This document shows positions 5,129-55,400 of a stretch of 64,000 nt of DNA, in pieces; position 1 is the stretch's first letter; every line of letters starts with the position of its first letter. Position numbers and translations under genes: made by a program. The stretch comes from Dicentrarchus labrax. Its lineage: Eukaryota. The notes beneath the pieces were generated by a model. It did no database searches and was not told where the DNA came from. It saw only the letters and a program-made list of their open reading frames with translations. The stretch spans positions 24,783,935 to 24,847,934 of the forward strand of contig NW_026136706.1 of assembly GCF_905237075.1 (NCBI RefSeq). The letters run 5' to 3'.

Positions 5129-5331
5129 GCAGTTGTGTTTCAGTATTTTGTAATTGCACACAAAAAAGCAAACACCCAAATCAAATTGAGTTTAGTGATT
5201 TCAGCATAATTCCAGCATTTATCCAATATCAACTAATTTAACAGGAGTATAATTTTCAAGACACAACAGCAGTGGCATGTTGTATCTGACAGCTACAGGT
5301 GTTTCAGAGAAGTGTCTGTTGTTTATTTCAG

Positions 5332-5502
5332 ACCATGTCTCCGCTCAGCGTTCAGCTGCAGAACTCTCCTCTATCAAAGCCAACCTGACTGAGCGTCTTC
5401 AGGCCATTGACAACAAGTCCTGTTCCCTGACTGAAGAGAGAGACCTGCTGAATGCCAGAATCACTGAAATGACTCAAGAGCTGGAAAGGCTGACTAGTTT
5501 GG
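5332..5502 (+). CDS. Lectin B exon 3: coiled-coil neck (…ANLTERLQAIDNKSCSLTEERDLLNARITEMTQELERLTSL)
   Basis: Acceptor tttcag before 5332 and donor GTGAGT at 5503. The frame matches ORF 5277..5549 and the sequence has heptad-like leucine spacing. Confidence 0.8.
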
Positions 5503-6418
5503 GTGAGTCCTTGTCTATAGAATCTACATTTACTTGTTGTCTAATCTAAAACATTTTTACTCAGAAATTCAGTGTTCACCCTGCAATGTGATTTAGTGGC
5601 CAGTTTCAGGTCAATATTCAATATCTCCTAAAAATAAAATATGATTATGGACCACTGTAAAACTGTGGCCTCTCTCTGTGCATGAAACTACATTGTAGAC
5701 AAGGACGAAGGCTCTCTCCTGTGTAAAATAAACACACAATAGGTTTGTGTCTGTTTGATTCAGATTCCCACCACACAGGTCAAAAGTTTAAAAATCAAGC
5801 AGAAAAATCTGAATTTGGAATCTCAAACTATCCAACAAGGATAGGAGTGTAGTTTGAGGAGCATTAAATGGTCACTGATGGAAGTTCAGGAGGTTCTGAG
5901 GGTAAGGAGCGATGAACTGATGGATGTGGAGGGGAGAAGGAAGAATATGATGTCACCTGTTAGGTTGGTCTGGGAGGACGTGCTGAAGGTGTGCAGAGGG
6001 AGACTCAGTGTGGGGATTCTGTCTCAGGCGTGTTTTCTACCAGAGCTGCTTACAGGCCCCAAGACGGTACCGAGAACGAGATGTGGGAGAGGTATGCACT
6101 GATTGAATAGGAAGGGATGAGGGGAAAGAGGCTGAAGGTATGTGGGTAGAGTTTAGCAGAGGGAGGGGTAGGGTAGGATGAGGTGAATGGAAGAAGGGAA
6201 AGAAAGGGAGGGTGGGTCCAGAAAACTGAAGCAAAGGAAGGAAGGAGTTGACCAGGTATAAGAAGGTTGCCAGGTGATAAGGAGTGGTTGAGGCGTGGCC
6301 CTGCTCCTGAACCTAAGTTATCTAATCACATTCATTTCACTGAAAAAGCTGATAACTTCACAAATACATTGACACAAGTCTTGTTGGTCTGTGATGTGTC
6401 TGTATGTTTATCTTACAG

Positions 6419-6561
6419 TGAAAACCTGTCCTGAAGGATGGAAGATGTTTAATAACACATGTTATCTCCTCTCCAATGAGTCTGGTACCTGGGATAAAGC
6501 CAGAGAGGACTGCAGAAACAGAGGAGCAGATCTGGTGGTGATAAACAGCGAGGAAGAGGAG
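6419..6561 (+). CDS. Lectin B exon 4: CTLD part 1 (VKTCPEGWKMFNNTCYLLSNESGTWDKAREDCRNRGADLVVINSEEEE)
   Basis: The long-form CTLD N-terminus carries the CPxGW…C…C…WxxAxxxC pattern. Acceptor cttacag at 6412-6418 and donor GTACAG at 6562, followed at once by an intronic (GT)n tract. Confidence 0.85.
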
Positions 6562-6564
6562 GTA

Positions 6565-6566
<2 letters not shown>

Positions 6567-6610
<44 letters not shown>
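6567..6610. repeat. (GT)22 microsatellite starting 6 nt into lectin B intron 4
   Basis: Direct read. The position is homologous to the (TG)n tract in paralog A. Confidence 0.95.
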
Positions 6611-6612
<2 letters not shown>

Positions 6613-6832
6613 AACCATGACACACGACGAAAAACCCCACAACAATTATTCTGTATCACTGTGGACAAGATGGAAAAACACATCAAGATGTCTTTCTGGA
6701 AACAGATATTACCCATCTATACAGGATTTAATGAAACCTGTTATTGTCTCTTCTTCTAAGTGATATTTAGAATGATTAGGTTACGATCATTATTGCATAA
6801 TAACATAATGTGGGTTTCTTTCTGTTGAACAG

Positions 6833-8108: not shown

Positions 8109-9149
8109 CACTGCTGTATAAATTGTTCTTAAAATTGTAATCTATTATGTCAATCTAATACGTCAACTTGCATGTTTGTAAAAAATGTGTTTGAGTGTTT
8201 GACTGTGCTGAGCACAGTGCTATTGTATGTATTCAAACACCTTCAAATCACAGCTGTAGCTAAATATTGACGTGCAATATTGGAATGCCCCTATAGTAGT
8301 TAATGATTAAAAATGTCTTAACTGTATCTTTCCCTTTTTCTAATAACCAAAATAAAATATTAATAGTACATAATTTCAGATTATTTTGTTGGTGACCCTA
8401 TTCGAATCTGGCTACTTTTTTCGACTGAAAATGGAAGTTGGAGTAGTTTTCCTTGTGATCCAGCAGATAGCGCTGTACTATGAGGATGAGCAATGACATG
8501 CCCTATTGAGCTGTCAGTAAACTAGACTAGTAATGTAATGTTCCTGAATGGACAGTCACGACCCCAAAGCATTGGAGAAGCAGTGTGCTTCTGTCGACTA
8601 GGGACAAATCAGCTGTCCAACTCTACAACTCCAAATCCGCAAACTTGCTAACGTAGGCCGCCTCAGTGAGGCAGCAGAGCGGCGGCACCACAGACAACCT
8701 CGTCTGACTGCTATTGTTCAGCACACTCGGCTTCAGCGGGTTGCTTGATCACCATCACCAATAAGACAGCAACATTAATATGCAAGGATATGCAGCCCAT
8801 TGGTGTGGTAAGAGCGAATGTCTTATCCTATAGTCTTTATCTTATGCTTTCCTCAGCGGCACTTTCCATTTGTTCTGTGTTTTGAGATTATTTTTCCAAA
8901 TTCATTGAAACGAATTGTGTGTCATTTGAAATTTGTTCAAACCTGATTCGTAAGTGTTGGCCTTACAAGGCAGTGTGGCCAGCAGAGGTAGTAAGGAAGA
9001 GTGGGTTAGCAAGGTGGGGCTAATTTTTGCGGTCCAGTGTGTGGAATATAATATTCATTGGTATGTTTTCATTAGTGTATAATCATGAAAATAGTAGTTG
9101 TTGTGTTTTTGTTACTTTAGAATGAGTTGTTTTTATCTACAGATGCCTG

Positions 9150-19420: not shown

Positions 19421-19871
19421 CTACAGCATACACACACACAGGGATCACAGTTATTACAGTACAGTACAACTGCAACGATTGGTCCATACGTGGTCATTTA
19501 CTAAATTAATCGCCAAATATTTTGATAATTGATTTTATGGAAGTCGATTTTAAAGGAATGCACACAAATTCTTCAGTTCAGTTTCTCAAATGGGAATATT
19601 TTCTGCTTTAATTAATCCTCTTTGACAGTAAAGTGAATATCTTTGTGTTGTGGACAAAACAAGAAGAAAAAAATTCTAGCCCTTGGACAACTAGTTGAGG
19701 ACTATGTACATAATACCTTATGGTACATTAACTTAAGTGAATGATGTTAACGGTTCTGTCCCCACTGTATATTCCCAATCTTACAGTCCCAGAAAGGTTG
19801 GTTCAAAATGGTCTGAAATGACAAAGATATTAAGACTCTGAAGGCCTGAAACTGATTTTAGGAGTTCTCAC

Positions 19872-20847: not shown

Positions 20848-21153
20848 CTGAAACAACATGATCAAAACAGGACTCTCTAAGTGAATACTGGCAATATTAT
20901 ATATTATTATAAATACCCACACGTAACCACACACACACTTGAGCTGACTCTCTTTCTTCCACATGCATAGATACACATACACAAAATAACTTTCAATCCA
21001 CTAGTCAGTTAACATAGAGATAATGGATTCTGTTTTTCATTTTGTCAACCAAAGCTTGCAGCCATTTTAAATAAGCACAGCAACAATTGTCTTACAATAA
21101 TTATTATCAGGGTTGAAGGATATCTTAAAACAAGTAAAAGTTTTGGGACTTAC

Positions 21154-22040
21154 TCAAAGAGTGGATATTTTGCTGAACGCTGAGGTCGAGAGAACTCCAT
21201 TCGACCAAATAGAGCTCGGGTTCTCCTTTTAGTAGCTGTGATATCAGAGAATGATGATGCTTTGCTTGGACCAATCAGATTATCTGCAGACTTTGCAGAT
21301 GCACCGGAGAACATGGAAGTCCTTATTAACTGGTGCCTGGTAGGTTGAGAAGCTCCGAAGAGAGTGCCACAAGGAGCAGAAAAACCCTGAGCAACAATGG
21401 GAGCACCAATGGATGGAGGAGGAGGAGGACGAAGAGGAAGAGGAGGAGGTGAAGAAGGATCATATGAGAAAGACTGACCAACAATGGGAGAACCAATGGA
21501 TGGAAGAGGAGGAGGACGAGGAGGAGGTGAAGAAGGATCATATGAGAAAGACTGACCAACAATGGGAGCACCAATGGATGGAGGAGGAGGAGGAGGAGGA
21601 GGAGCATGTGGATGTTGAGAACGATCCATTGAGACAGCCTGAGCACCCATAGCCCACACATGTTTTTTAAATGAGTGCCGAGTAGCAGAGTGAGCAACAT
21701 AGAGAGGGAGAGGAGGAGGTTTGAAAAGATTAGATGGGACAGCTGGAGCACCAATGGAAGGTGGTGGAGGAGGAGGATGTGGAGAACTATCGATTGAGAG
21801 AGCCTGAGCACCCGTAGCACTAAGAGTAAGTGAGTGTTGCCGAATAGAGGACTGAGGAGGAGGTTGAGAAAGATTAGCTGGGACAGCTGGAGCACCAGAG
21901 GAAGGTGAAGAACGTCCGGATTTAAACACAAAACCACTTTGGCTAAAAGACAGTTCAGAGTCATGGCATAGGCTGGTTTCAGAGTGACACAGAGGAAGAG
22001 GAGAATCATAGATCATGTAGCACATGGACCAGGTCAAAAA
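21154..22040 (-). CDS. parp4: PARP4 exon 30: 887-nt proline-rich region with internal tandem repeats (…PPPPPSIGAPIVGQSFSYDPSSPPP…)
   Basis: Codon positions were calibrated against ORF 21150..22046(-). The apparent in-frame TAA is really part of a perfect GTAAGT donor (ttga|GTAAGT). The exon corresponds to the proline-rich tail of human PARP4. Confidence 0.7.
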
Positions 22041-22469
22041 CTGCAAAAGGAGAGATAAAAAGACAACGTTAAGTTAAAACTCCTCGCGTGCGCTTTTTAA
22101 ACACCACCACCAGTTCATTGTACTTAACACACAAAAATCAGTTTTTAGATTAATTCTACCAAGCAAACTTTTGAAGGGGCCTTTGTGAAGCACATGCAGG
22201 AGGAACATAGTCTTCATCAATGACTTTACACATGAACTCATTACAGATGAGTGGTGCAGTGTGCATTGTCCTGCTTAAAAATAATAGGTGTGATGCCACA
22301 CAAGGACGTGTGATGCTAATTTAGGACTGGTCAAGCTATTAAGTGTTATTTATTTGTTTATTTTTCCAGCTGTCCATGCATTCAAATGAGCAGCTTGAGC
22401 TAGAAATGCATTTGTTGTCCTTCCAAAAGAGCAAATATGCAGCTGTGGTTTGTGTGTGAAGGCACAAAC

Positions 22470-41020: not shown

Positions 41021-41037
41021 ACACACCCACACACCCA

Positions 41038-41090
<53 letters not shown>
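41021..41090. repeat. (CA)n / CACCCA compound microsatellite in the long first intron of PARP4 (between the putative 5' leader and coding exon 1)
   Basis: Direct read. Confidence 0.9.
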
Positions 41091-41092
<2 letters not shown>

Positions 41093-41515
41093 CCGCCCAC
41101 GTAAAAAGCTGATTTCTGGGAAACAAATGCGGAAGCAAATCGCCAAAACTAGGCTGTAAAACTGTGCAATAACAGGCCACACTGAGACTCTACACCGCTA
41201 CTGCATTAACATAAACAGCATTAAGTTACTTTACATGGCTGAGAACCGGCGTTATATTGGGCAAATATCGGCTAGGAGAGAAATAAAGACACAAAACAAT
41301 AAGAATTGATCAATTAACAAAGTAAGCGAAGGGAAGGTGTCCCGTAATGTCCAGTAAAGTGTATGACATGCTTTACGTTAGGTTAGCTCTCTGTGACATT
41401 TCACAAACAAACGTAACGTAACTTATTAAGTTAGAAGAGACATGGCGTCATCTCGCTAACGTTAAATTCGGATTAAATGAATACATAAATAATAAATAAA
41501 TAAACTGAGGTTTAC

Positions 41516-41690
41516 TTTGCTGTAAACATGCAGGTGGTTCTTCTGCGGTTGTTGTCAGAAAGCAGCTGCAGGTTGATGTTAGTTCCTGAAGAAGAGAAGA
41601 ATACAGCCCTGTGTGTCCCTGCTGTGTGTCTGAGGTTAGCACAACGCTAGCAGCTTCATCTTCCGGTGTGTCTGTGTTTTCACAATAAAG
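41516..41690 (-). other. parp4: Putative PARP4 5' leader (non-coding first exon). It holds a 64-codon upstream ORF and a CCGGAAG ETS-type motif, with a caaa|GTAAAC donor near 41515.
   Basis: The first coding exon (40374-40501) begins with a splice acceptor 2 nt before the ATG. The nearest upstream donor-bearing segment is this region. The transcription start site is not determinable from sequence. Confidence 0.3.
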
Positions 41691-42374
41691 GTTGTGGCGT
41701 TAAAGAGAAAATCCTTCTGTTGAGAAGCTGCATCTGTTTGATAAAAGGTAACATGTGTGACAAACAGCATTATAAAGAAGTGTAGTGGACCCCAAAAAAT
41801 GTCAATCATCAGAATTTTCATATTTTTCTTCTGTGAAAATTAAAATCGTGATTGCAAAAAAATATTTCCACTAATAGTGAATCATATTGCAAATGCCAGT
41901 ATCTTTCAAAATAATCGCAATATGCAGTATATATATATATATTTTTACCATATCATACAGCCCTAGAGTCAAATTAAATCCCAATACTGTCTATGGACCC
42001 CAGTATGCAGAAATTCAAATACACTGGGCAAAAAAATACCATTGACAACACAATAACAAATAAAACATTTAAACTGCATGTTTTTTGCCCCAAACTGCAT
42101 GAGATTAGCATAAAGTGGGCATGCCTGTAAAGGGGAGACTTGTGGGTACCATCTACCGTCAATGGTGGGTACCCATAAAACCCACTTTCATTCTTGTCAA
42201 AGGTCCCCAGACCTTTAAAAAAAAGGCCTACAGAGATAAAGAGAGAGAGAGCCTAAAGAGTTCCCATTCCCAATATTGAAACCATGTCATACTAGGCAGG
42301 CAATGACAAAGATAGTGATGTTGCTCAACAAATCAGACTTATTTTTATTTTTTTTTCCCAACTGAGGCCCCTTT

Positions 42375-42690
42375 TCTGTCTGGCTTTTAATTTGAAAGAA
42401 AATCCACAAGACTGGAGTAGTCTCAGTGTAGGTTATTGGAACTTGACAGAGTCTCTCTTCCTGGTTCAAAGCAAACAGAATGTGCAGTTCTCCTCATGGA
42501 CTGCTCTGTTTACAGCACAGCCACAGAGCCATGCTGCCCTCCTCTGGATGAAGAGTTGTACTACAAACAAAAACTGTGTGGGGACCTGAATTATCTGGGC
42601 AAACTTAACTGCATTTGGAACCCAGCCAGTGTCTGAGCTAGAACAAATATCCAAGGGGGGCAGAAGGCTTATAGCGGGGCGGGGGGCAAA
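42375..42690. repeat. Copy 1 of a ~310-bp dispersed repeat. Copy 2 is at 44660-44990 and a partial third copy is at 45343-45380.
   Basis: Near-identical sequence (…ggttattggaacttgacagagtctctcttcctggttcaaagcaaacagaatgtgcag…ccaaggggggcagaaggcttatagcgggg) lies in direct orientation about 2.3 kb apart. Confidence 0.7.
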
Positions 42691-42757
42691 ATATTAGCCG
42701 GATTGGAAAATGACCAAACTACATTTAAATTACAGAATTACACAAATGTAGACTGCA

Positions 42758-42759
<2 letters not shown>

Positions 42760-42839
<80 letters not shown>
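42760..42839. repeat. (TG)~39 microsatellite
   Basis: Direct read. Confidence 0.95.
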
Positions 42840-42841
<2 letters not shown>

Positions 42842-43199
42842 AACGACTTGAGGAACCATCTGTTTAAAAAATCTAGTAGAAGGTGATGTTCAGTTGACTC
42901 TTTAGGAAGGAGAGTTTTGTTCAAGCAAGATTTATAGAAAATGCATGGCAATTAAGACATAGAGCACTGTATCCAACATAATTATTCCATTTAATCAATC
43001 AATTAATCATAGTGTACTCATAGTGTGTAATACATGGAGGGATTAATTAAATGGTTAAATTAGGCTTTCTGCTCAGAATTGTATGTAAATATGACCTATT
43101 TCCACTCAGTATCTTTCACAGATCACTGTTCCTGTAAGGAAAAACAGGGCCAACATCAGTTTTATACTCTGATGTGAAAAAGATGTATTTCTTTGCCCA

Positions 43200-44260
43200 T
43201 TCTGCACAGGCCTTAAACAGAGAGATGTGGAGCCAGATGGAGGCTCGAATGAAAGAAAAAGGAGGACAAGCTGAGGGCCACAGCTAGAACCATGGTCCAG
43301 AACCAGAGAGAGCTCTGGTAAAATGAGAGACAGCAGCTGCTGGAAGAAAAGAAGACCGTGCAGAAGAAGCTGTCAGGAGAGCATGAGAAGGCAGAAGAGG
43401 AGATCAGAAAGAGAGATGAGCAGATTCATCAGAGCCTCCATGCTCTTTAAGAAGAAGCAGCGAGGACGAGAGCCTCTCTCTTGATGAATGAAAAGAATCC
43501 AGCGAGGTCAAAAGCATGGAAGAAAAGCGGCTAGCGAAAGTCAGCCAGCTTAAGGAACTCCTCGTAGAGAAAGATAAAGAGATCAGCAGGGCCAATGAAA
43601 AGAAGAAGAACTCGTACGGACGCCCAGAGAGCAGACATACGAGCTGGCAGACAGAGAGAAGACCCACCAGAAGGAGCTCTCTGACAGAGGTCAGAGCTAC
43701 AGGGAGGAGCTCTCTGACAAAGAAGAGCACTTCCTCTCTTAGAAAGAAACATCCTTCCAGACAGGAGCTCTCAGGAGATCCGAGCCCAGCAGTGGCAGAG
43801 AGAGGAGACAGAGCTGGAAGAGATGCTGCAGGCGCTGGTCCACCAAAAGATCCTGAGGCACAAGGAGGCAGAGAGGAGAGAGGAGCTCCACCACCTCGCA
43901 GACGCAAACATCTGGCTTCACGTATGCTGCCTCAGCTCATCTTTTGGATTCTAACAGCTCATTTCAGAAGAATTCAGAGCTCTGGAAGAGAACTAAAAAC
44001 AGGCTGTCTTTCTCTTTTCAGGAGCAACAGGAGGAGAAGAAGAGCCTCTGGAGCTGGAATCTGCTCTCTTAAAAAGAAACCTCTTCACCCCTCTATCCCT
44101 AACCCTAAACCCTAATTCCCTTCCTGATGGTGGTTGTGTATTTATTTATTATTTTTCTACTCTTACTGTTTTTTATACTGTTTTTTTCTCTATCCACTTT
44201 GCTGCTGCAACATTGGAATTTCCCCGTTGTCGGACAAATAAAGGAATATCTTATCTTATC
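43200..44260 (+). pseudogene. Frameshifted coiled-coil gene fragment (K/E/R-rich, ELSDKEEH… repeats) ending in CCCTAA x3 and AATAAA; probably a processed pseudogene or repeat-borne fragment
   Basis: Charged heptad-like ORFs run in all three plus-strand frames with stops and shifts. The longest is ORF 43516..44115. The segment is flanked by 310-bp direct repeats. Confidence 0.35.
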
Positions 44261-44659
44261 TTATCCGTCAGCTTAGCAGAGTTAGTTTTTTATTTTATAT
44301 AATGTTTACATGGAAAACAGCTTTAAAACTAATTGGGTAAAATTCCTTAAAGTATTTTTACTGATCTAACAGCAGAGTCACAGCGTTATATTGTAAACAT
44401 GAATGTAGTCAGTAAACCTGAAATTTCCTTGACAAGAGTTCAGAGTGAACAATGAGTAACTGCCCTTTTGTTCTTTTGAGATTAAAGTTCCTTATAATGA
44501 CAAAGAAGGAATTCCGGTCAGATAATTAATTCAACTATAGATAGTGATGATACTGATTCTCACATTCTTTCTGTCTGGATTTTAAATTGAAGGAAAATCC
44601 ACAAGACTGGAGCAGTCAACAAATCAGACTTATTTTGAAATTTGTTCCAACTGAGGACC

Positions 44660-44990
44660 CTTTCTTTCTGTCTGGCTTTTAATTTGAAAGAACATTCTGA
44701 AGACTGCAAGTAGTCTCAGTGTCGGTTATTGGAATTTGACAGAGTCTCTCTTCCTGGTTCAAAGCAAACAGAATGTGCAGTTCTCCTCATGGACTGCTCT
44801 GTTTATGTTTACAGCACAGCCACAGAGCCATGCTGCCCTCCTCTGGATGAAGAGTTGTACTACAAATAAAAACTGTGTGGGAACCTGAATTATCTGGGCA
44901 AACTTAACTGCATTTGGAACCCAGCCAGTGTCTGAGCTAGAACAAATATCCAAGGGGGGCAGAAGGCTTATAGCGGGGGACCAAATTACT
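44660..44990. repeat. Copy 2 of the ~310-bp dispersed repeat
   Basis: Aligns to 42375-42690. Confidence 0.7.
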
Positions 44991-47916
44991 GGCAAGTGGA
45001 GACATAGTCATGCACAGTGAAATCACCTTCTTCTGTGTTATATTCTTCCATGCTTGTAACTGCTGCTATTCATTCTTTTTTTAACCATCAAATAAAAGAT
45101 GAAGCCAGCACCAGTGTAAAGTGTACTGGTTTAGTCTTCAAAGGGCCAATACAACCCCGGAAATGCAGTTTTCCATTCCAGAAAGTGATTACAGCCTCCT
45201 ACCTTTAGTAGTTTGTGTTCTGCCACAAAATGATTTGATTTCACTTGTGAGTTATTTTTTGAAGGTTAGAGCTCACCCATTTTCTACTTTTGGAAATACC
45301 TTTAAAGTGGAGAATTCGGGGCTGAATATTCATCAAATGTAGATAGTGATGTTTCTCAACAAATCAGAATTATTTTCATTCATTCATAAATGCTTAGAAA
45401 AAGACAACCACGGTGCTGAGAGAATCCGACTGCCGTTTACTATGTGACGACGGACGTTCATGATGCGTGTCTGCTGTGGTAGAACAACAAAGATGGACTA
45501 CAAAAAGCGCATTTTAGATACTTAGCACTTGCACTCTTACCGTGTTGTTTCATGTAAGCTTTATTGATCAACCCAGTGAACAATAGGACTTCATTGGCCT
45601 GGTTGGAAAATGAAAATGAATTAAATTAAAATAAAAAAGGGAATACAAAAGTCATACAAACCTACTACTGAACATAATATTTTGCACATCTTCATTTAAA
45701 GAATAATAATAGTCTTTGACTTGCAGTACTTGTTTCACTTATCCTGTGTTCATTGTTATGCACCAATATAACGAGGTAAATTCCTGTATGTGGAAACGTA
45801 CTTAATGTACACTCATTCTGAATCTGATCATTCTTAAGGTTCAGCATCTGAGAGTGAAGAACAATTCAAATATTTAAATGATATTCCTAAAGGCTGCAAA
45901 TGAGGAATATGTTACGCTACGGTGTATAAACTTCAGTTTGATCATTTTAATATAATAATATTTATACACAAAGATCGTTTGTATTTGAGAACAGGTGGCT
46001 TTTCCGCAAGGAATTGTGGGACGGCATTATCTCCTTCAAGTATCCCTATGCTAAAGGAGATAATAAAGGAAGCATTGAAGCTCCTTTCCTCAGCATTTAG
46101 AGAATTCCAACAGCTCTTAACACTCACATACTTCTGGGCCCTTTCACTCAGTTAGAAACCGTCCTGATCAAAAATACTACTGGACCAGACCCCAGAGCTA
46201 CAGGAAGGAGCTCTCTAAAAAACAACAAACAACAAAAAGAGTGTGGAAACCTGGCCTTGTTTACCATAATACAGCCTCACACTAACACAGATACATAAAT
46301 GTAGGTGCAATGTTGCAAAACTAATCATACTGGGGATAGTTTTAAAGTGCAGGTGAAACTGGAATAAGAGAGCTGTTAGCGTTTCACACATATTTACGCA
46401 TTTCCTGTATAAAACAGGCAGTCAGGGAAGGACCTGTTGCCGTAGCCAAAAGCGCTGTGTGTTACGTCCCCCCAGTCCAGCATCTCTAGCGGACCCATTA
46501 GCTGGCTCTGTCGGACTGGGAGCTCCAGTAGAATTTTTTTTTTTTTTCATTTTTTGGGTCTACATTGCTAAATAGGGGTATAATATGACAGAGGATGCAA
46601 TCTTTAAAGGGTTCAAATTACATTTTTCATTTCACCTGGACTATAAACAATTGAAAGATACAAAATTAAAAGCATAGAATACCCATTGTTAATATAGTAA
46701 AACCAACAATACAAATGTAATTAAAAAAAAAACATGAAGGAAAATTAAACATGCTAAAATAAATGATACATTTCTGGAAACATTTGTGGAACGTTGTACA
46801 CTTTCAACCTCATTTTCGCTACATAGCACATACCGGTAGTTCTGTACCGTAGATAGTGTAATTTCCACCTTGCATGAAATGGGGGACACACTATAAAAAG
46901 TAGAAGCAGGTTCACTTTTGACTAATATCATGAAGAAACCAGTGAATAATAAGCCGGTATTGGCGCTACTGCTCTGTCCAGCTGCAATTTGCTGCAAGAA
47001 GAAGGTGACACGGTAAAATGTTGTGATTGTCATTTACACTAAGTGTGCAATGGCCCTGCTCGATTTGAGACAATACTACTACACTGCCGAAATTAAGTAA
47101 GTACTAAGTGTGCATTGTGTACTACATAGAAGTGTACTAACAGACGTATCCAAATTGAGACACAGCATCTTTCTCTCTTTACCACACAAGCCCCATTCTG
47201 TTAGTGAACGGCAGCTACATTAGCAATTAGCTGAGGCAGAGCAGCTGGAGGTCATCAGCGGGAAAACGGCCAGATGTTCATAATGTTGTGGCTGATCTGT
47301 GTTTTTTAAGTTTTCATCAGGTGATTCTGATGGAGAAAGAAGGAGGTTGTGGCGTGATTGCATTTGGTGTCCGGGCCTATGAGTAAAACAGGTTATTTTG
47401 ACAGTGCTACATTGTTTTTTTGTGTGCAATGTTTACTCAGTTGTGCAGGATCCTAACAGTATTGCACAAACGCTAGAGGTCAAAATGATGCCTAGAGCAA
47501 GCCCAATTGCCCATTTCTAACACAATCACCGTTCAGTCCCAAGTGCATTTGTCAGGTTGAGTCAGTTAGTTGCACTGACTGAGCTGTGAAGCACAACAAA
47601 CTGAAGCCGCCGTGTACAACATTCACATCCTAATACAGCAGGACCGCAGGACATGATTTGGCCGAGATATTTAACACCACTACCAGCTTGGCAAATACTG
47701 ATGGTGTGAGCTGTGGAGGACGTGGGAGCAGTTGTGTCCAAGAAAATTTCTGGATGACAAATTGGACAATAACTGTTATATGCATCATGCTGGGAAGGAA
47801 ACACAACGATTGACAGACAGAACAGCAGGACGCAAGTTCATCACAATCGGAGCTTCCTCTCATCCTGTGATTGCTAAAAGCTGAACAACGGAATGAAATC
47901 AACGCTGAATGCTACA

Positions 47917-47933
47917 CACTCTCTCTCTCTCTC

Positions 47934-47968
<35 letters not shown>
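47917..47968. repeat. (CT)9(CA)~17 compound microsatellite
   Basis: Direct read. Confidence 0.9.
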
Positions 47969-47971
<3 letters not shown>

Positions 47972-49324
47972 CATCCCAGTGGGGATTTTCACAGCTGCCA
48001 TCTCTGCCTGCCAGGACTTGCATCATCAGGTACCAGAAACCTCCAAAGCTTTTGAAAAGCCTCAAAGAGATGAGAGAATCACTGATAAACCTGAGAATAT
48101 TCTGAATCCCCCACAAACTGAAGGATAAAGCATAGTGTGTGAAATTATTATATTCCCAGTATTAGTATTGTGCGCTTAGATAAATCTTCCTAAATCAAAA
48201 GAAAATATATTTTCTTTAGACAGTCTGGGGATATTTTCCTACATATAGATTCAATCTCTGCACGCCTTTGCCTAACAGCAGCTACCTTTCATGTCTGCCT
48301 TAGCATCTTGTGGCAAACTTTCCAGCCGCTGCAGACAGCACCTTATCTGAGTCACAGAGTGTTTAATTGGAGTATTACTACAGAGAGAGCCGATTGCAGA
48401 TCGGCTTTGATACCCCTCCCCCCTGCAACCCGACATCTAGACTGTCTTTGAGTAGCCTTGCAGTAGTGGTGCCACAGTGAGTGAGTCAGCTTTTATTCAG
48501 AGCGAGGGCTGAACAGAGTTATGAGTCAGCTTTCTCATTACTGTACAGCCCCCTTTGAGTCTGTAGAGCAGTTATCTGCATGTATTTACTGAAGGCAGGA
48601 AGGAACGTTGTCACAACATATTGTCCACTTGTAATATATTACGCACCTAATATCTTAGCTGTGTAGTGTTTGCCATGTTGTACTGAGCTACAGTGATAAA
48701 CCAGCTGGGATTGATTCAGGACTCACTGAACCAGATGGAGAGCACACATGACACCCATTTTACAAACTTTACAGTGGCTGCCTATCAGTTTTTGTATTGC
48801 TGTTTAAATTGCTTGACCAGTTTATGAACCATTACATAGTCTTGAACCAGTCTGATATGAAGTATAAACCAGGGGCTTGTTTCATAAAAGCGATTTACAA
48901 GTCTTGTTTCACAAATGATTGCCACTCGCAAATCATGGGGAAATTTGCAAGCTCTTCAGCTCTCTTGCATGCTCATCACGAATACAGAATTTGTTCTGAA
49001 CAGTAAAGCGTGTTAAAATGAATGCAAAAACAAGAATTTATCTCATACTGCAGATTGGAGGTTGCAAATTTGAGTGAAACGGGCTCCAGGTCCTCTCATA
49101 ACAAACCTCTCAGTTGTTCCAAAACGCATGAGGAAAAGGTTTGAAGGGCTTTTAGTTTTTGTGCGTCGAGCCATTAGAACGGCCTGCCCTGAGGATCTGT
49201 GAGCAGCACAAAGCCCTGATATCTATGAAGATACATTCAAAATCTACCTCCAATAACTAATTTCTTTTCTTCTTTTAAAGTCCCCCTCCAGTCAAGAAGC
49301 TGTTGTTCTTCTTGTTCCTACAGT

Positions 49325-49460: not shown

Positions 49461-52400
49461 ACATCACACAGCAGGAAAACTTTGAACACAAAAAATAACA
49501 AAATGTGCATATTTGTATATATATATCGGCAGATTCTGGGTTTGGCAATAAGGTAGAAGGAGTAGATGTCCCTACAAGATTGTAATGTGGAAATTACCCT
49601 TTCTTTGAAGTCTTTTCTGTAGATATGTCTTTATACATGCCTGGAGGGGGTAGTATTAGTCAGTGTATTGGGATACTCATCTGCATTAGTCGCCAATAGT
49701 TTTACAGATAACATTCTCTTATTAGTAGCTTATCAGTCAAAACCTCTATGAGAAATGAAGTTTGATTGATTGAGCTAATTCTGTTGTTTACCTCAGAAGT
49801 ATAAAAATGGAGGAGCAGTGACTGTAGTTACTCCAACATCATAAGAGGACAAAGCTCTGAGCCTTCCAACTGGACTTCCTGGATTCAAATGCATCTTTTC
49901 GTCAGTACACACAGCGACCTGCCCACTCCTGAATTTGACATTGTGCCTACTTGTCACAGAGTACTGCAGTGCCCAAAGCTGCCAGGAGGAGGAGCTCTGG
50001 CTCCTACAGTATAGGCACCAAAGCGCTCAGACCACAGACACAGTAGATGGTGGTTAGTATGAGGATTTCATCCCAGTCACATTCCGTCTTTTGGGAGCAA
50101 CACATGGTCAAAATTTCCCTGAATAGTCATCCCCTCACACACCAGACAGTTGTCCTCCTGATTGATTCCATTCATACAAAAAAGTAAGGCCCATTAAAGC
50201 TCCTCCCCCCTCATCCATCCTTTCCTCCTCCTTCTGCATCCTCTTTTTATACATCCTGTGTTCCCTGCCACCTGTCTACTCTCTTCCACTCCACTGATGT
50301 TATTTACTCCACTGACTCTTATTATTGTACAGTATGTCACATCAGCTGGATTGGAAGGAAGAATTCCCTCCATCTTTCTCAGTTTCTCCTCCTCACCCTC
50401 CTCTTGTGGCTCAGTTAAGCTTGAATGAAAGAGCGGGGGGGGGATACTGTAGCAGCAGTCTGAGGTTAATGTCACACGACTGAAAATCTATGACGCCTGC
50501 GGTGGCCTGCAGGGTGGTGGATGACAGCAACTGCCCAAATATCAATGCAAGACACATACATATACCAGTGGAAGAGCAATTTGAGGAACAGTGTGCATCA
50601 GGATACCTGACCATTTTATGAGTACACCTCCCAAAATAAACACTTACAATTTCCCTAAAAACAAAAAAACAGGTCCCCTTAGAGCCGGGTTATCTCTTTG
50701 CTTTTCAGGCACAGACTAAATTATGCCAAAAAATTGGCAACAGATTCTTTGTCCGATTTTAGATCAATATTTCTTTGTTTAATTTGCTTACATGCAGGCT
50801 GTTCTGTATTCGATTAGTTGTACAGCGCATTTAAAAAAACAATTCTTAAAGGAAAATGCTCTTTTAACCCTTTAATATTCCAGTCATGTACGCCTCTTAA
50901 ACAATGTATGCCAAAAAATATGCAAAGACGTTATTTCTTTGTATTTTTAAAACTTTACCAGTGATTTGGGTGAAACTGCTGCTGTTAGCCAATGGAACAG
51001 GGCTCAGCAGCGTCCCAGTGAACACAACCTCAGAGACAGTACTCCGCGGTACTGAGGTGATTTATGGAGTTTGTTTGTTGCTAAAAGAAGCTAACTGCAG
51101 CTAACGGCAATGTTAGATGAATAGCACTCTGATGTCCGTTGATAGAACATGGCCTATTCAGCTGAATGAAACAGCAAAAGGTGTTGCAGATATTGTTTTA
51201 GTATCACCGAAACTGACGTGTCTTATTAGCGTGACTACTGGACTGCAGGAATTTGCAGCTGAGCTAGCACGACTCTGTGACACATTCTCAGGCAGAGTGG
51301 TGCTTTGAGCTAAATGTTAACAGCCCCATGCTAACATGCTCACAATGACATTTACTGATGGGTTGTTTGTGAATGAGTCGGCTCCTTTAAGTGAATGATT
51401 GGATCCTGCTCCCATCTGAGAGACAATGTCTTTTTCTTTTTTTTATAAATGAATAAAAGACAAAATAATAGGATGGAATAATATATCCGTTCAATACAAT
51501 CCAGAAACATTTCATTTTGGTAATAACAGTAAGATCCAAGCATGGTGAGACATTTGTATGTTGTGCCGGTCTGCAACCTAATTTGATTATGTTTGTTTGT
51601 GCTCAAATGAAAGATAAGTAATGTAATAAACCATGTTTAATCACACAACCACAAACTGTTGTTCCAGCATAGGAGGACTGTTTGATCTCTGGGACTCTTG
51701 GATATAAAGGAACTGCCATACTGAAGTCTGTTGTGCGACTGCCCTCCCCTACCCCCTGCAGCAAATGTTTGCCCCAGGGCCCACCTAACAGATTTATCCT
51801 GCCATGATCCATACAGACATATATAGAAAGACAAACAGGCCTTCTGTTTATTTCTGCTTTCTCCTGGCCTGCAGCAGATTGCTTTGCACAGTGCAATGAT
51901 CATAACAGTCAGCATTAATATTTTTGTGCTTGCTCTGCTCCCAGAGAGAAAGAGACAGAAGAGGTGGTGCAACTAGAGGGAAACCTTTTATGTTTTGAAG
52001 CAGGGGGTCGTTGTGGAAGCTGGAAATAAATGCTGCAGTTTCAGTTTAAATCCTTGACATCCATTTCCATTTTCCAAGTGCTGAATGGGAACGGACACAG
52101 TGTCCGGTTAAGATAGATGATATAAACCGATACATGCAGATTCTCACAAATTCAAACTCTATGAAGCAGAAGAGCACAGAATCGGAAAGAAGGCAGTCCC
52201 CTCCAGGAAGATGCAAAATTGCGATTGCAACAAATTCAACCAGTCCCTGTGAATTCTGCGCAACCTCGCAATTTTGTCCAATCACTGCGACTTTTCCACA
52301 AATTTTACCAATCTTTGTAGTTTCCCATGAGTTTCACCAATCATGGCAGTCCCCCATGCAAAACACCAAGCCATTTTATTCTCACCGGAACAAACTGACT

Positions 52401-55400
52401 TTGATTTTGTTTGCAATTTTCACTTTTTCCAGCATTTTCAATGCAAAAATTGCCTAAAAACATTGCAATAGGCTTCAACAATCTTGCAAAATCCTGGAGA
52501 GACTGAAAAGGCACACATGTCATTGTGAGTGTTTGGTTTTGTGTATATATGGACAATTTTATTTTATCTTCATTTGCCAAAGCAGAGTCTGCAAACTGCA
52601 GTCCAAGTTTATTGTCTCTGTTGTGAGTCCACTATGAGGTCTGCTTTTTGTGATATAAATTTCTCCTTGTTCTTGACTTCAAGCGAGCTGCATCCCATGG
52701 AGAACTTAGAATATTAAGTCCAAACTTTTCAGAAGCTGTGACCTCTTTTAACGAATTCTCATGAATTGGAGATCACTGGGAATTATAAATGGAAACGGCT
52801 TTGCTGTCAATAGCGTGCTTCATTCACGGATTCGCTCATGACTGAGCCACTGAATTACTTGAAAAATGACTTCATTTCTTGAGCTGCCATAAGCTTTCTG
52901 GCTGTTTCACATCATTTTCCCTCGTTATGTACATATATTGATAGTTTGCCTAAAATTGTAGATCCTGTTTCCCGCAAAGGTATGACATTGGATATTCTTC
53001 TGTTGTCTTGACCTGATGTGCATTCAGGAGGAACCTAGCACTATTTATTAGCAAATGTTTCAAGTTCTCATCTTTCAACAATGGCTGTGCATATCATTAC
53101 CAATTCAACACAAGTTCATAGATGGCCCACTTTTCCCTCCATTTTTTTTCCTTTTTAGAACAAATTGTTGAGTGGCAGCAATTTAGATCTTTTGTGTAGG
53201 AAATCATTCAGATATGTAAGAATAAATAGTATTAAGAACTGAGTGGTTAGCGTTTGACCACAAAGAATATAACTGCGTGAACCTCTGGAGCATGCCGAGT
53301 TTAAACATAAAAAAAATGCTTGGCACAAATGACTTTAAAAAAGCAGCATGTTGCAGATTACTTAAGCAACTCTTTGTTGAAATGCTGGCATTCAACTAAC
53401 CTTCCTCCACCTCTTGCTCAGAGTGAAATAAAAGGAATGTGTACGTGACTGCAGAGCTGAAATCAAGGTTGTTGTTTATGACTGAAAGGGGTTTGACTTG
53501 GAAACAGAACATGTTAACAGACAATGAGCTTCCTTATTAGAAAACAGAAAACTATCCGACGCCCATTGCAGTTCTGCATCATGGAGCACTAATGGAGGCA
53601 CTGCAGATAAAATTCAGGTACAGGTGTGAACACCTCATGAGAATGACGTATAACAAATGTATTTTAGAGATTCCTAGTCAGACAAAAATCCAACAGGCAG
53701 TGAAATGTGACTCTTCCTGCCAAACAGTATTAAATTGGCTCATTTTGTCTTTGCTTTCACTCGCTTGCCAGGTTTCTGATAACATATTCAATATAAAGCT
53801 GGCAGCAAATTAATGGCTCCTGACATAATAAACAGAACTCGATACCGTTTGCTTAGCCTGTGGGTGTGAAACCAATTCACTTCATAAATGTTGGCAATAG
53901 GCATCCAATTAATTTACTCCCTGTCAATATCTGTAGTTAACATGGAACAACAGGAAGCAGGACTACAACAAGTATTTACACATTTCTTATGTCAGACCAA
54001 AAAATAAGATAAGAAGTGCACAAACATTTTTCTATTTATTAATTTATTAATTTAAATATATTGTTTTTCTGTCCAGCTTTGCTTCAGTTCATGCAGAAGT
54101 TGTTAATTACAAGCAACAGAATCAGAACCATGATTGAAGTAATATAAGATGAAATTAAACAGTGATACCTGTGGGAAAATGTGGCTGTGCAGCAGAATAA
54201 GAAGCACTAGAAATAAACATTAGAAATAATTTCCAAGTATTAAAGTAAGGCTAAGGCTGTAAATACGTGTGAATTATACACAGGGTGAGTTTTTTTTTCG
54301 TCTGGTTTTGGTTCTGACAGAAGCTTGAAGCCTGGTGAGATGGATTCTCGCACGCTCTTGCGAGTCCAGCTGCTTATGGTAAGGTTATGGTAAATGATTA
54401 CACGCAAGGACAGAGCCGATGTGCCTCATGAACAGGGAATCCCAAAAAATGATTCATCTAGAATTGATAGTTTCACAGTGAGGGCTCAGCTGGAGACATG
54501 GGTGACTAGCGTAGTAGTTGTATAAGTGCAGTGGTGTTAACGTCATTTTAAGGGGGTAAAGATGTAATGTTTGAGGTTAATAAATTAATACATTGATTGG
54601 TTTTGTACATCAAAATAACATGAATTACCTAATTGCAGCAAACTCACCTATGTAGATAATTGAGTTTACTATTTTATATGCATTACATGGCCACAGACAC
54701 AAAAAGCTGAAATGAAGGTGGCCATGATAATGGTGCTCAACATCCCATTGGCATTTCTAATCACCTAAGGGCTGCATACATTTGTGTCGTCACAATGAGA
54801 GAGAATTCACTGACCGGCAAACTGTGGAGGTGTGATTCAACGATTGCTCGACATGGGGCCGACATCAGGGACCAGCTGAAGCTCTGCAGAGGCCGTATTT
54901 AGCTAAATGAAAGGTGATGGAAGGGCACAATATCCCACGGGCCAACTGTGTGGCCCTTGCAGCTGATAATGCTAGTGTGATTCTGGGAATCAGGACTTCC
55001 TGGAGGGTCCTGGATCAAAAATCCATTCATCTGCATTCTTGGCTGTTGCTGCCACATTGTGCACAATAACGCAAACGCTGTTTGCTTGCTTTACTCCGAG
55101 GTAATGGCTTGACAGTCACAGCTGCATTCTCCATTTGCAATGCTTACATTTTACATTAAGTCAAATTATAAAAAGTAACTACGTTTTTTTCTCACCCTCC
55201 AGATGTCAGCCTTTAATGTTAAAGATTTCTGTATTGATCTTGTTTGGATATCCAGCGTCAAGAAGAAGAATACGCTTTTCTTGATGAAAAAATATTCTCA
55301 CCTTACACAATGATTCTGAAATTGTTTGAAGGGCCACTCTAAAATACTTATTTTGTTCTTTTGTTCTACTCTGTATTTTGCATGTTTTGTGACACTATGA

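Follow-up and report, generated by a model that had tools for sequence, protein, structure and literature searches.

How a coiled-coil-encoding segment came to lie between two direct copies of a non-coding block was the question raised by positions 42.3-45.4 kb of a 64,000-nucleotide (nt) stretch of Dicentrarchus labrax DNA (the window; contig NW_026136706.1, positions 24,783,935 to 24,847,934 of the forward strand). The region is intergenic DNA just upstream of the 5' end of PARP4. The duplicated non-coding block was termed R, with R1 as the first copy and R2 as the second, and the DNA between them (~42690-44536) was termed X. The R copies were found in direct orientation ~2.3 kb apart, with the ~1.8-kb X, which carries the coiled-coil segment, between them. 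According to the sequence comparisons, the segment is best taken as a non-processed, 5'-truncated and dead pseudogene of a percomorph coiled-coil family, not as a working member, and R as a conserved non-coding block that ancestrally stood once upstream of PARP4 and was later duplicated in the lineage of the window. The region as a whole was probably produced by a lineage-specific rearrangement at the DNA level in the intergenic DNA upstream of PARP4.

The family of the segment was explored by protein comparison. A peptide stitched across the three plus-strand frames matched a 317-amino-acid (aa) protein of Thunnus albacares (P0001, 'golgin subfamily A member 6-like protein 22'), and the pairwise alignment was colinear over 95% of the query with 30% identity and an E value of 1e-16 (BLASTP). 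An earlier note, made from the letters of the DNA alone, had proposed that the segment was a piece of a coiled-coil protein gene with frameshifts; the parent family and the colinear alignment bore this out. The stitched peptide also matched P0002, a scombrid-like protein from a marine metagenome, and all tblastn matches of family members better than an E value of 0.01 fell within 43207-44087. A profile search gave 19 relatives, and all of the named ones belonged to percomorph fishes (Thunnus, Scomber, Scatophagus, Enoplosus, Larimichthys, Collichthys and Pampus). The automatic names were mutually unrelated: the golgin name was given in Thunnus and Scomber, 'trichohyalin-like' in Scatophagus and 'probable DNA double-strand break repair Rad50 ATPase' in Enoplosus, and 'vicilin-like' also occurred. 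No precomputed Pfam domain was present in the 19 relatives, no Pfam family was matched by the stitched peptide, and the Pfam scan of eight family members returned sub-threshold coiled-coil noise only. The shared motifs of the family were KVSQL.ELL.EK..EISRAN.K, REELS, QW..E...LEE.LQA and the C-terminal KS.WSW. A literature search under the automatic protein name yielded only unrelated work (zebrafish immunostimulants and copy-number variation in cave tetra). The picture is that of one uncharacterised fish family hidden under several unrelated automatic names, with a characteristic C-rich array in the 3' untranslated region (3'UTR).

The nucleotide identity between the window copy and the family members was 67-76% in the longer matches, and that of the members among themselves was 69-73%. 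The window copy was as distant as the members were from each other, indicating that the family is simply fast-evolving. The Enoplosus member was one of the closer relatives, with 38% aa identity over 72% of the query. The genes called within 10 kb of the family members were a smoothelin-like gene in Thunnus and a chitin-synthase-type glycosyltransferase gene in two sciaenids, and none was called in Enoplosus. PARP4 was not called within 10 kb of the family members in Thunnus, Enoplosus, Larimichthys or Collichthys. Furthermore, the sole DNA match between these four loci and the PARP4 region of the window was a dispersed one of 157 nt in the Thunnus locus (L001), and R was absent from them.

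The metagenome contig of P0002 (L002; Tara Oceans ERR599336 k127_1302047, 2.1 kb) is fish DNA and was 91.5% identical to the Thunnus albacares locus. P0002, the protein predicted from it, continues across intron 2 (..LQVCCLSSSF). In the Scatophagus argus protein (P0003, 541 aa), fragments of the window copy matched both aa 15-100 and aa 216-295, and by this pattern the entire coiled-coil unit appears to be duplicated in tandem within P0003.

The window copy and the rest of X were resolved into the following parts.

43083 to 43209, plus strand: 3' remnant of intron 1 with a conserved acceptor (..tgcacag at the exon boundary), aligned to Thunnus (L001 10327-10440) and to L002
43210 to 43921, plus strand: pseudo-exon 2, 712 nt against 864 nt in tuna, from protein and nucleotide alignment
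43922 to 44021, plus strand: intron 2, 100 nt, GT..AG, aligned to the Thunnus and L002 introns
44022 to 44072, plus strand: exon 3, EQQEEKKSLWSWNLLS, with the stop codon TAA at 44070-44072 and the family motif KS.WSW
44073 to 44265, plus strand: 3'UTR, with CCCTAA x3 at 44097-44115, AATAAA at 44237-44242 and (CTTAT)3 at 44250-44264
42760 to 42839, strandless: (GT)40 microsatellite detected by TRF in the block between the repeats
44266 to 44536, strandless: stretch between the poly(A) signal and R2, with no match in any fetched locus

The coiled-coil segment proper spans 43210-44072. The 199-aa open reading frame (ORF) at 43516..44115 was present as noted earlier, and the peptide quoted with it reads EEMLQALVHQKILRHKEAERREE. 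In the Thunnus gene, a tiny exon 1 of 8 codons lies ~410 nt upstream of an exon 2 of 864 nt, which is followed by an intron of ~92 nt and a last exon of 66 nt. The window copy retained ~125 nt of intron 1 with its acceptor, and its intron 2 aligned base for base with the tuna intron. The retention of the intron-1 end and of intron 2 indicates a genomic and not a processed copy. The homologous frame changed at least 4 times in exon 2, stops interrupted this frame at 43319, 43448 and 43740, and exon 2 was 152 nt shorter than that of tuna. No exon 1 was found in 40.0-46.5 kb with four orthologous exon-1 sequences, and the (GT)40 tract occupies the place expected for exon 1 of the parent gene and for the 5' part of its intron 1. 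The frame changes, the in-frame stops and the missing exon 1 together indicate that the copy is dead. The window held no second family copy, and a short isolated similarity between 46186-46225 and 43685-43724 had no protein-level support. The stretch 44266-44536 is presumably 3' flank that was copied along with the gene fragment, its origin being inferred.

The window copy resembles the percomorph family members in its colinear exon 2, intron 2 and exon 3 and in the C-rich array after the stop codon, but differs from them in the lack of exon 1, in its interruptions and in its shortened exon 2. It resembles non-processed (duplicated) pseudogenes in that introns, their boundaries and flanking non-genic DNA are kept, together with 5' truncation, frameshifts and stops. 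Unlike most duplicated pseudogenes, the insertion in the window is bracketed by a ~360-bp target duplication.

A processed pseudogene had been among the explanations offered in the earlier note, and this proposal did not hold. In its fuller form, a retrocopy of an mRNA or pre-mRNA would have been made by a long interspersed nuclear element (LINE), with (CTTAT)3 as a LINE-type tail and the CCCTAA tract derived from telomerase or telomeres. The short tandem repeat within 8 nt of AATAAA and the 5' truncation would suit this origin. However, the copy still contains its intron 2 and the last part of intron 1, no A-run follows 44242, and another 270 nt precede R2. Target-site duplications of retrotransposition are short, about 5-20 bp, and the ~360-nt duplication is far above the usual size. 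Moreover, the CCCTAA tract has homologous arrays in the 3'UTRs of the relatives. The retrocopy is hence regarded as highly improbable.

The sequence of the CCCTAA tract is CCCTAACCCTAAACCCTAA, 19 nt at 44097-44115, in which three CCCTAA hexamers occur and one is set off by an extra A; the telomere-like CCCTAA x3 reported previously was thus present, and it begins 24 nt past the stop codon. When up to 3 mismatches were allowed, a telomere 18-mer matched the window only at this site, against a chance expectation of 0.01, and other TTAGGG/CCCTAA clusters, for which a nearby check had been proposed, were absent from the 64 kb. The matching position is occupied in Thunnus by a ~210-bp (CTCACC/CCCTCA/CCCTTA)n array (L001 11527-11739), and the long array of Enoplosus (L003) is built of a ~21-nt unit, CCCCCCTCTCTTTACCCTAAA. 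This unit contains CCCTAAA, and CCCTAA occurred 4 times in the first 330 nt of the Enoplosus array. The sequence ACCCCTCTATCCCTAACCCTAAACCC of the window recognisably resembles the Enoplosus-type unit. Judged from these alignments, the CCCTAA tract is best regarded as an inherited, shrunken piece of the 3'UTR repeat typical of the family. A telomeric origin is unnecessary, since C-rich arrays occupy the same 3'UTR position in the relatives, and it is unlikely. The three hexamers in a row are like a short interstitial telomeric sequence; unlike such a sequence, the tract is only 19 nt long, lies inside a 3'UTR and is positionally homologous to the non-telomeric arrays of CCCTCA/CCCTTA and CCCCCCTCTCTTTACCCTAAA. 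The earlier idea of an interstitial telomeric repeat was not supported, as the tract lies in the position of the C-rich 3'UTR array. AATAAA at 44237 and (CTTAT)3 were located as previously described; the former is the poly(A) signal of the pseudogene, and the latter is a small adjoining microsatellite.

The copies of the flanking block were delimited as follows.

42310 to 42685, strandless: R1, with a strong match over 42325-42685 and a possible weak extension to ~42727
44537 to 44984, strandless: R2, with a strong match over 44616-44984 and an internal extra copy of 50 nt at 44568-44617
45341 to 45380, strandless: third, partial copy of the block start, 40 nt, from the repeat search and BLASTN

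Direct repeats of ~310 bp had been described at this site. Their presence was confirmed, and their length was revised to ~360 nt (42325-42685 and 44616-44984). A third partial copy at 45343 also exists, at 45341-45380, although it has only 40 nt from the start of the block, 92.5% identical to 42310-42349. R1 (42325-42679) and R2 (44616-44978) shared 92.9% identity over 365 columns (BLASTN), and the repeat search gave cores of 173 nt at 99% and 97 nt at 98% with a spacing of 2293-2299 nt. The global alignment contained 339 matches, 20 mismatches and 4 gap events. These differences were unevenly distributed: the initial ~100 nt had 10 substitutions and 3 indels (~10% divergence), whereas the final ~265 nt had 4 substitutions and one 6-nt indel (~1.5% divergence). 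The sequence AGATAGTGATG stands ahead of both copies, at 42310 and 44537, and in R2 it is followed by a 66-nt insertion that includes the additional 50-nt copy (44568-44617) of R positions 42373-42422. The block starts with AGATAGTGATG / TCAACAAATC.. and finishes with ..CTTATAGCGGGG, and its flanks are unlike each other. A test for longer, older units extending leftwards from the three R starts gave no significant similarity. The folding of the R core RNA was unremarkable, with z = 0.2 on the plus strand and -1.9 on the minus strand.

The origin of R was examined at the PARP4 loci of other fishes. PARP4 had been named as the neighbour, and it was confirmed on the minus strand at ~21.1 to 40.65 kb, with its first coding exons at ~39.9-40.65 kb. 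Its BRCT, PARP, VIT and VWA exons could be identified from their homology and from nucleotide alignments with notothenioid and goodeid loci of this gene, and the top identities in the protein search were 84% (Notothenia, N-terminus) and 90% (Characodon, a short VWA stretch). Ten ORFs of the window had no exact counterpart in the protein collection. The Notothenia coriiceps locus (L006) was colinear with 36.0-54.0 kb of the window in 16 blocks. R1 (42370-42572) was 76% identical to L006 8447-8259, and R2 (44665-44871) was 72% identical to L006 8444-8259, which is the same Notothenia segment. This segment (8259-8447) sits between the homologues of window positions 41493-41696 and 47475-49251, and a 27-mer of R, ATGCTGCCCTCCTCTGGATGAAGAGTT, is identical in the window and Notothenia. 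In Xenoophorus (L008), R1 and the Notothenia R weakly matched one site that has the expected orientation and lies 2.5 kb upstream of PARP4 (E values of 1e-3 and 9e-5), and the Dissostichus locus (L007) ends just short of R. The coiled-coil family gene was absent from the Notothenia, Dissostichus and Xenoophorus loci by tblastn. R1 and R2 are ~1.5% apart in the core and each is 24-28% from the Notothenia R; hence the duplication is much younger than the species split. R1 was also tried as the original copy, and this assignment was dropped: 7 core sites of Notothenia agreed with R2 and 4 with R1, and no clear polarity was obtained.

Long blocks at 47475-49251, 51753-52195 and 53424-53956 were 68-84% identical to the upstream region of Notothenia PARP4 and had no long ORF. 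They were better conserved than some PARP4 exons, and by this comparison they are candidates either for conserved non-coding sequence or for a non-coding transcript missing from the annotation.

Further copies of R were found neither in the 64-kb window nor in ~172 kb of other fish loci, and the conserved 27-mer had 0 matches in the metagenome scan. R as a short interspersed nuclear element (SINE) was rejected: ARAGORN found no tRNA-like head in 40.5-47 kb, Rfam gave nothing above noise in the same interval (only a spurious SCARNA7 match on the (GT)n tract), and R is single-copy at the orthologous Notothenia site. The combination of a common SINE and no parent gene, which the earlier note had held against its own proposal, was thus not observed, and a parent family was found.

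The same synteny bears on a long terminal repeat (LTR) element. A solo LTR, an LTR pair or a composite element had been suggested, and the corresponding explanation is a terminal-repeat retroelement (an LTR pair or a TRIM/LARD-like element) or a composite mobile element with a captured gene fragment. The ~360-nt direct repeats around ~1.8 kb of unrelated DNA resemble an LTR retrotransposon or TRIM, in which direct repeats of a few hundred bp surround an internal region. Unlike such elements and solo LTRs, R lacked the hallmarks that were examined: inspection by eye (no formal scan) showed no TG..CA termini, target-site duplication, primer-binding site or polypurine tract at the repeats, and R occurs singly at the orthologous Notothenia site with a species-level divergence. 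The interior consists of a microsatellite and a host-gene fragment whose stitched peptide had no Pfam match, the gene is in sense orientation with its intron unspliced, and the additional R copies searched for above were lacking. An LTR-type origin is accordingly scarcely credible. The single copy at the syntenic Notothenia site and the missing LTR and SINE hallmarks indicate instead that R is neither of these elements and was duplicated in the lineage of the window.

A false duplication in the assembly, caused by a heterozygous insertion or a repeat-rich stretch, was considered because the copies are near-identical and close. R1 and R2 nevertheless differ by 20 substitutions, 4 indels and the 66-nt insertion ahead of R2, which exceeds a typical allelic difference; moreover, the window has no N gaps and the PARP4 exons beside the region are undamaged. 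Such an artefact is very unlikely.

The arrangement R-X-R could also be ancestral, in which case recombination between the repeats would have removed the gene in Notothenia and Xenoophorus and left one R behind. Such recombination commonly deletes the DNA that direct repeats enclose, and the comparison covered only two outgroups; both facts leave room for this history. However, the R1/R2 core is ~98.5% identical, against 72-76% to Notothenia, so that sustained gene conversion would be needed, and the family members of Thunnus, Enoplosus, Larimichthys and Collichthys lie without R and without a called PARP4 in 10 kb. An ancestral R-X-R is for these reasons improbable.

A lineage-specific rearrangement is thus the favoured account of the region. 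It fits the order of target copy, foreign X and target copy, the stray patches and the clustering of the differences near one end. In the proposed mechanism, the site would have received a copy of a genomic gene fragment while ~360-450 bp of its own DNA were duplicated, at a time after the notothenioid lineage had split off. Replication template switching may have produced a tandem duplication whose junction took up a templated insertion; alternatively, widely staggered breaks may have been repaired by fill-in. The 50-nt copy (44568) and the 40-nt copy (45341) would then be patches from the same or later switching. The region is like known tandem duplications with templated junction insertions in its succession of duplicated target, foreign block and duplicated target, in its 50-nt and 40-nt patches and in its differences clustered near one junction, a likeness in which the mechanism is read from architecture alone. 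The class would be that of replication-based complex rearrangements, such as fork stalling and template switching (FoSTeS) or microhomology-mediated break-induced replication (MMBIR). The pseudogene was probably disabled already when R was duplicated, and it would have no protein function; its many lesions beside the young R pair suggest that it was dead before copying or was at the site before R was duplicated.

Several points weigh against the rearrangement account. The copying event was deduced and not observed, and the donor locus of X was not found. The uneven divergence of R1 and R2 (~10% against ~1.5%) is not predicted by one simple duplication. Gene conversion could make R1 and R2 seem younger than they are, which would blur the argument that the pseudogene was dead before copying. 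The outgroups that polarise the duplication are one good (Notothenia) and one weak (Xenoophorus). Furthermore, the Notothenia DNA between R and the next conserved block resembles neither X nor the DNA after R2; with no similarity to the right of the Notothenia R, the original right-hand flank of R is not identifiable.

A two-step history was also considered, in which X was inserted beside R long ago and R was copied later to the other side, for example when a ~2.3-kb stretch of R and X was duplicated in tandem and the second X subsequently disappeared, or when the template was switched locally. The contrast between the heavily disabled pseudogene and R1/R2 cores that are only ~1.5% apart agrees with this order of events, and the 50-nt and 40-nt patches imply more than one small event here. 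However, no trace of a second X follows R2, and the copying of an already dead fragment would give the same contrast in one step. Moreover, the window copy is no farther from the family members (67-76%) than the members are among themselves (69-73%). A two-step history is accordingly held to be possible but doubtful.

Beyond annotation, the locus is of low importance: it is best annotated as a non-processed pseudogene that belongs to an as yet unnamed coiled-coil family of percomorphs, and the duplication of R in one lineage is a possible small case study for rearrangement mechanisms or regulatory evolution. The conservation of R is on a par with that of the PARP4 exons. More speculatively, and with the likelihood put low, R may be a cis-regulatory element of PARP4 or a neighbour, and its duplication, with a head-to-head fragment that carries a poly(A) signal, may have altered regulation within the lineage. 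Independently of this, the locus may be a clean natural case of a ~360-450-bp 'target duplication' during the DNA-level spread of a fast-evolving, lineage-restricted gene family.

The base composition of the 64-kb window was 39.8% GC, with a CpG observed/expected ratio of 0.33 and zero Ns. In the PARP4 neighbourhood, an 80-nt inverted microsatellite pair, (CA)n at 41021-41090 and (GT)40 at 42760-42839, was 91-96% complementary and 1.66 kb apart, and it flanks a stretch just upstream of PARP4 that includes R1. The ORF over the last PARP4 exon (21150-22046, minus strand) is proline-rich and has three near-identical repeats of PPPPPSIGAPIVGQSFSYDPSSPPP. Farther away, C-type-lectin-like exon ORFs (..CPEGWKMF..CYL.S.ESGTWDKAREDCRNRGADL..) were found at 534-836 on the minus strand and 6391-6759 on the plus strand, each running into (GT/CA)n, and a coiled-coil 'neck' ORF lies at 5277-5549. 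These ORFs look like tandem CD209/CLEC4-like gene copies or fragments. Short matches of 73-91% to unrelated loci of other fishes occurred at 19499-19655 (L001 388-551), 55879-55955 (L001 12688-12608, reversed) and 51296-51350 (L004 6611-6665 and L005 6545-6599), and these are probably dispersed repeat fragments.

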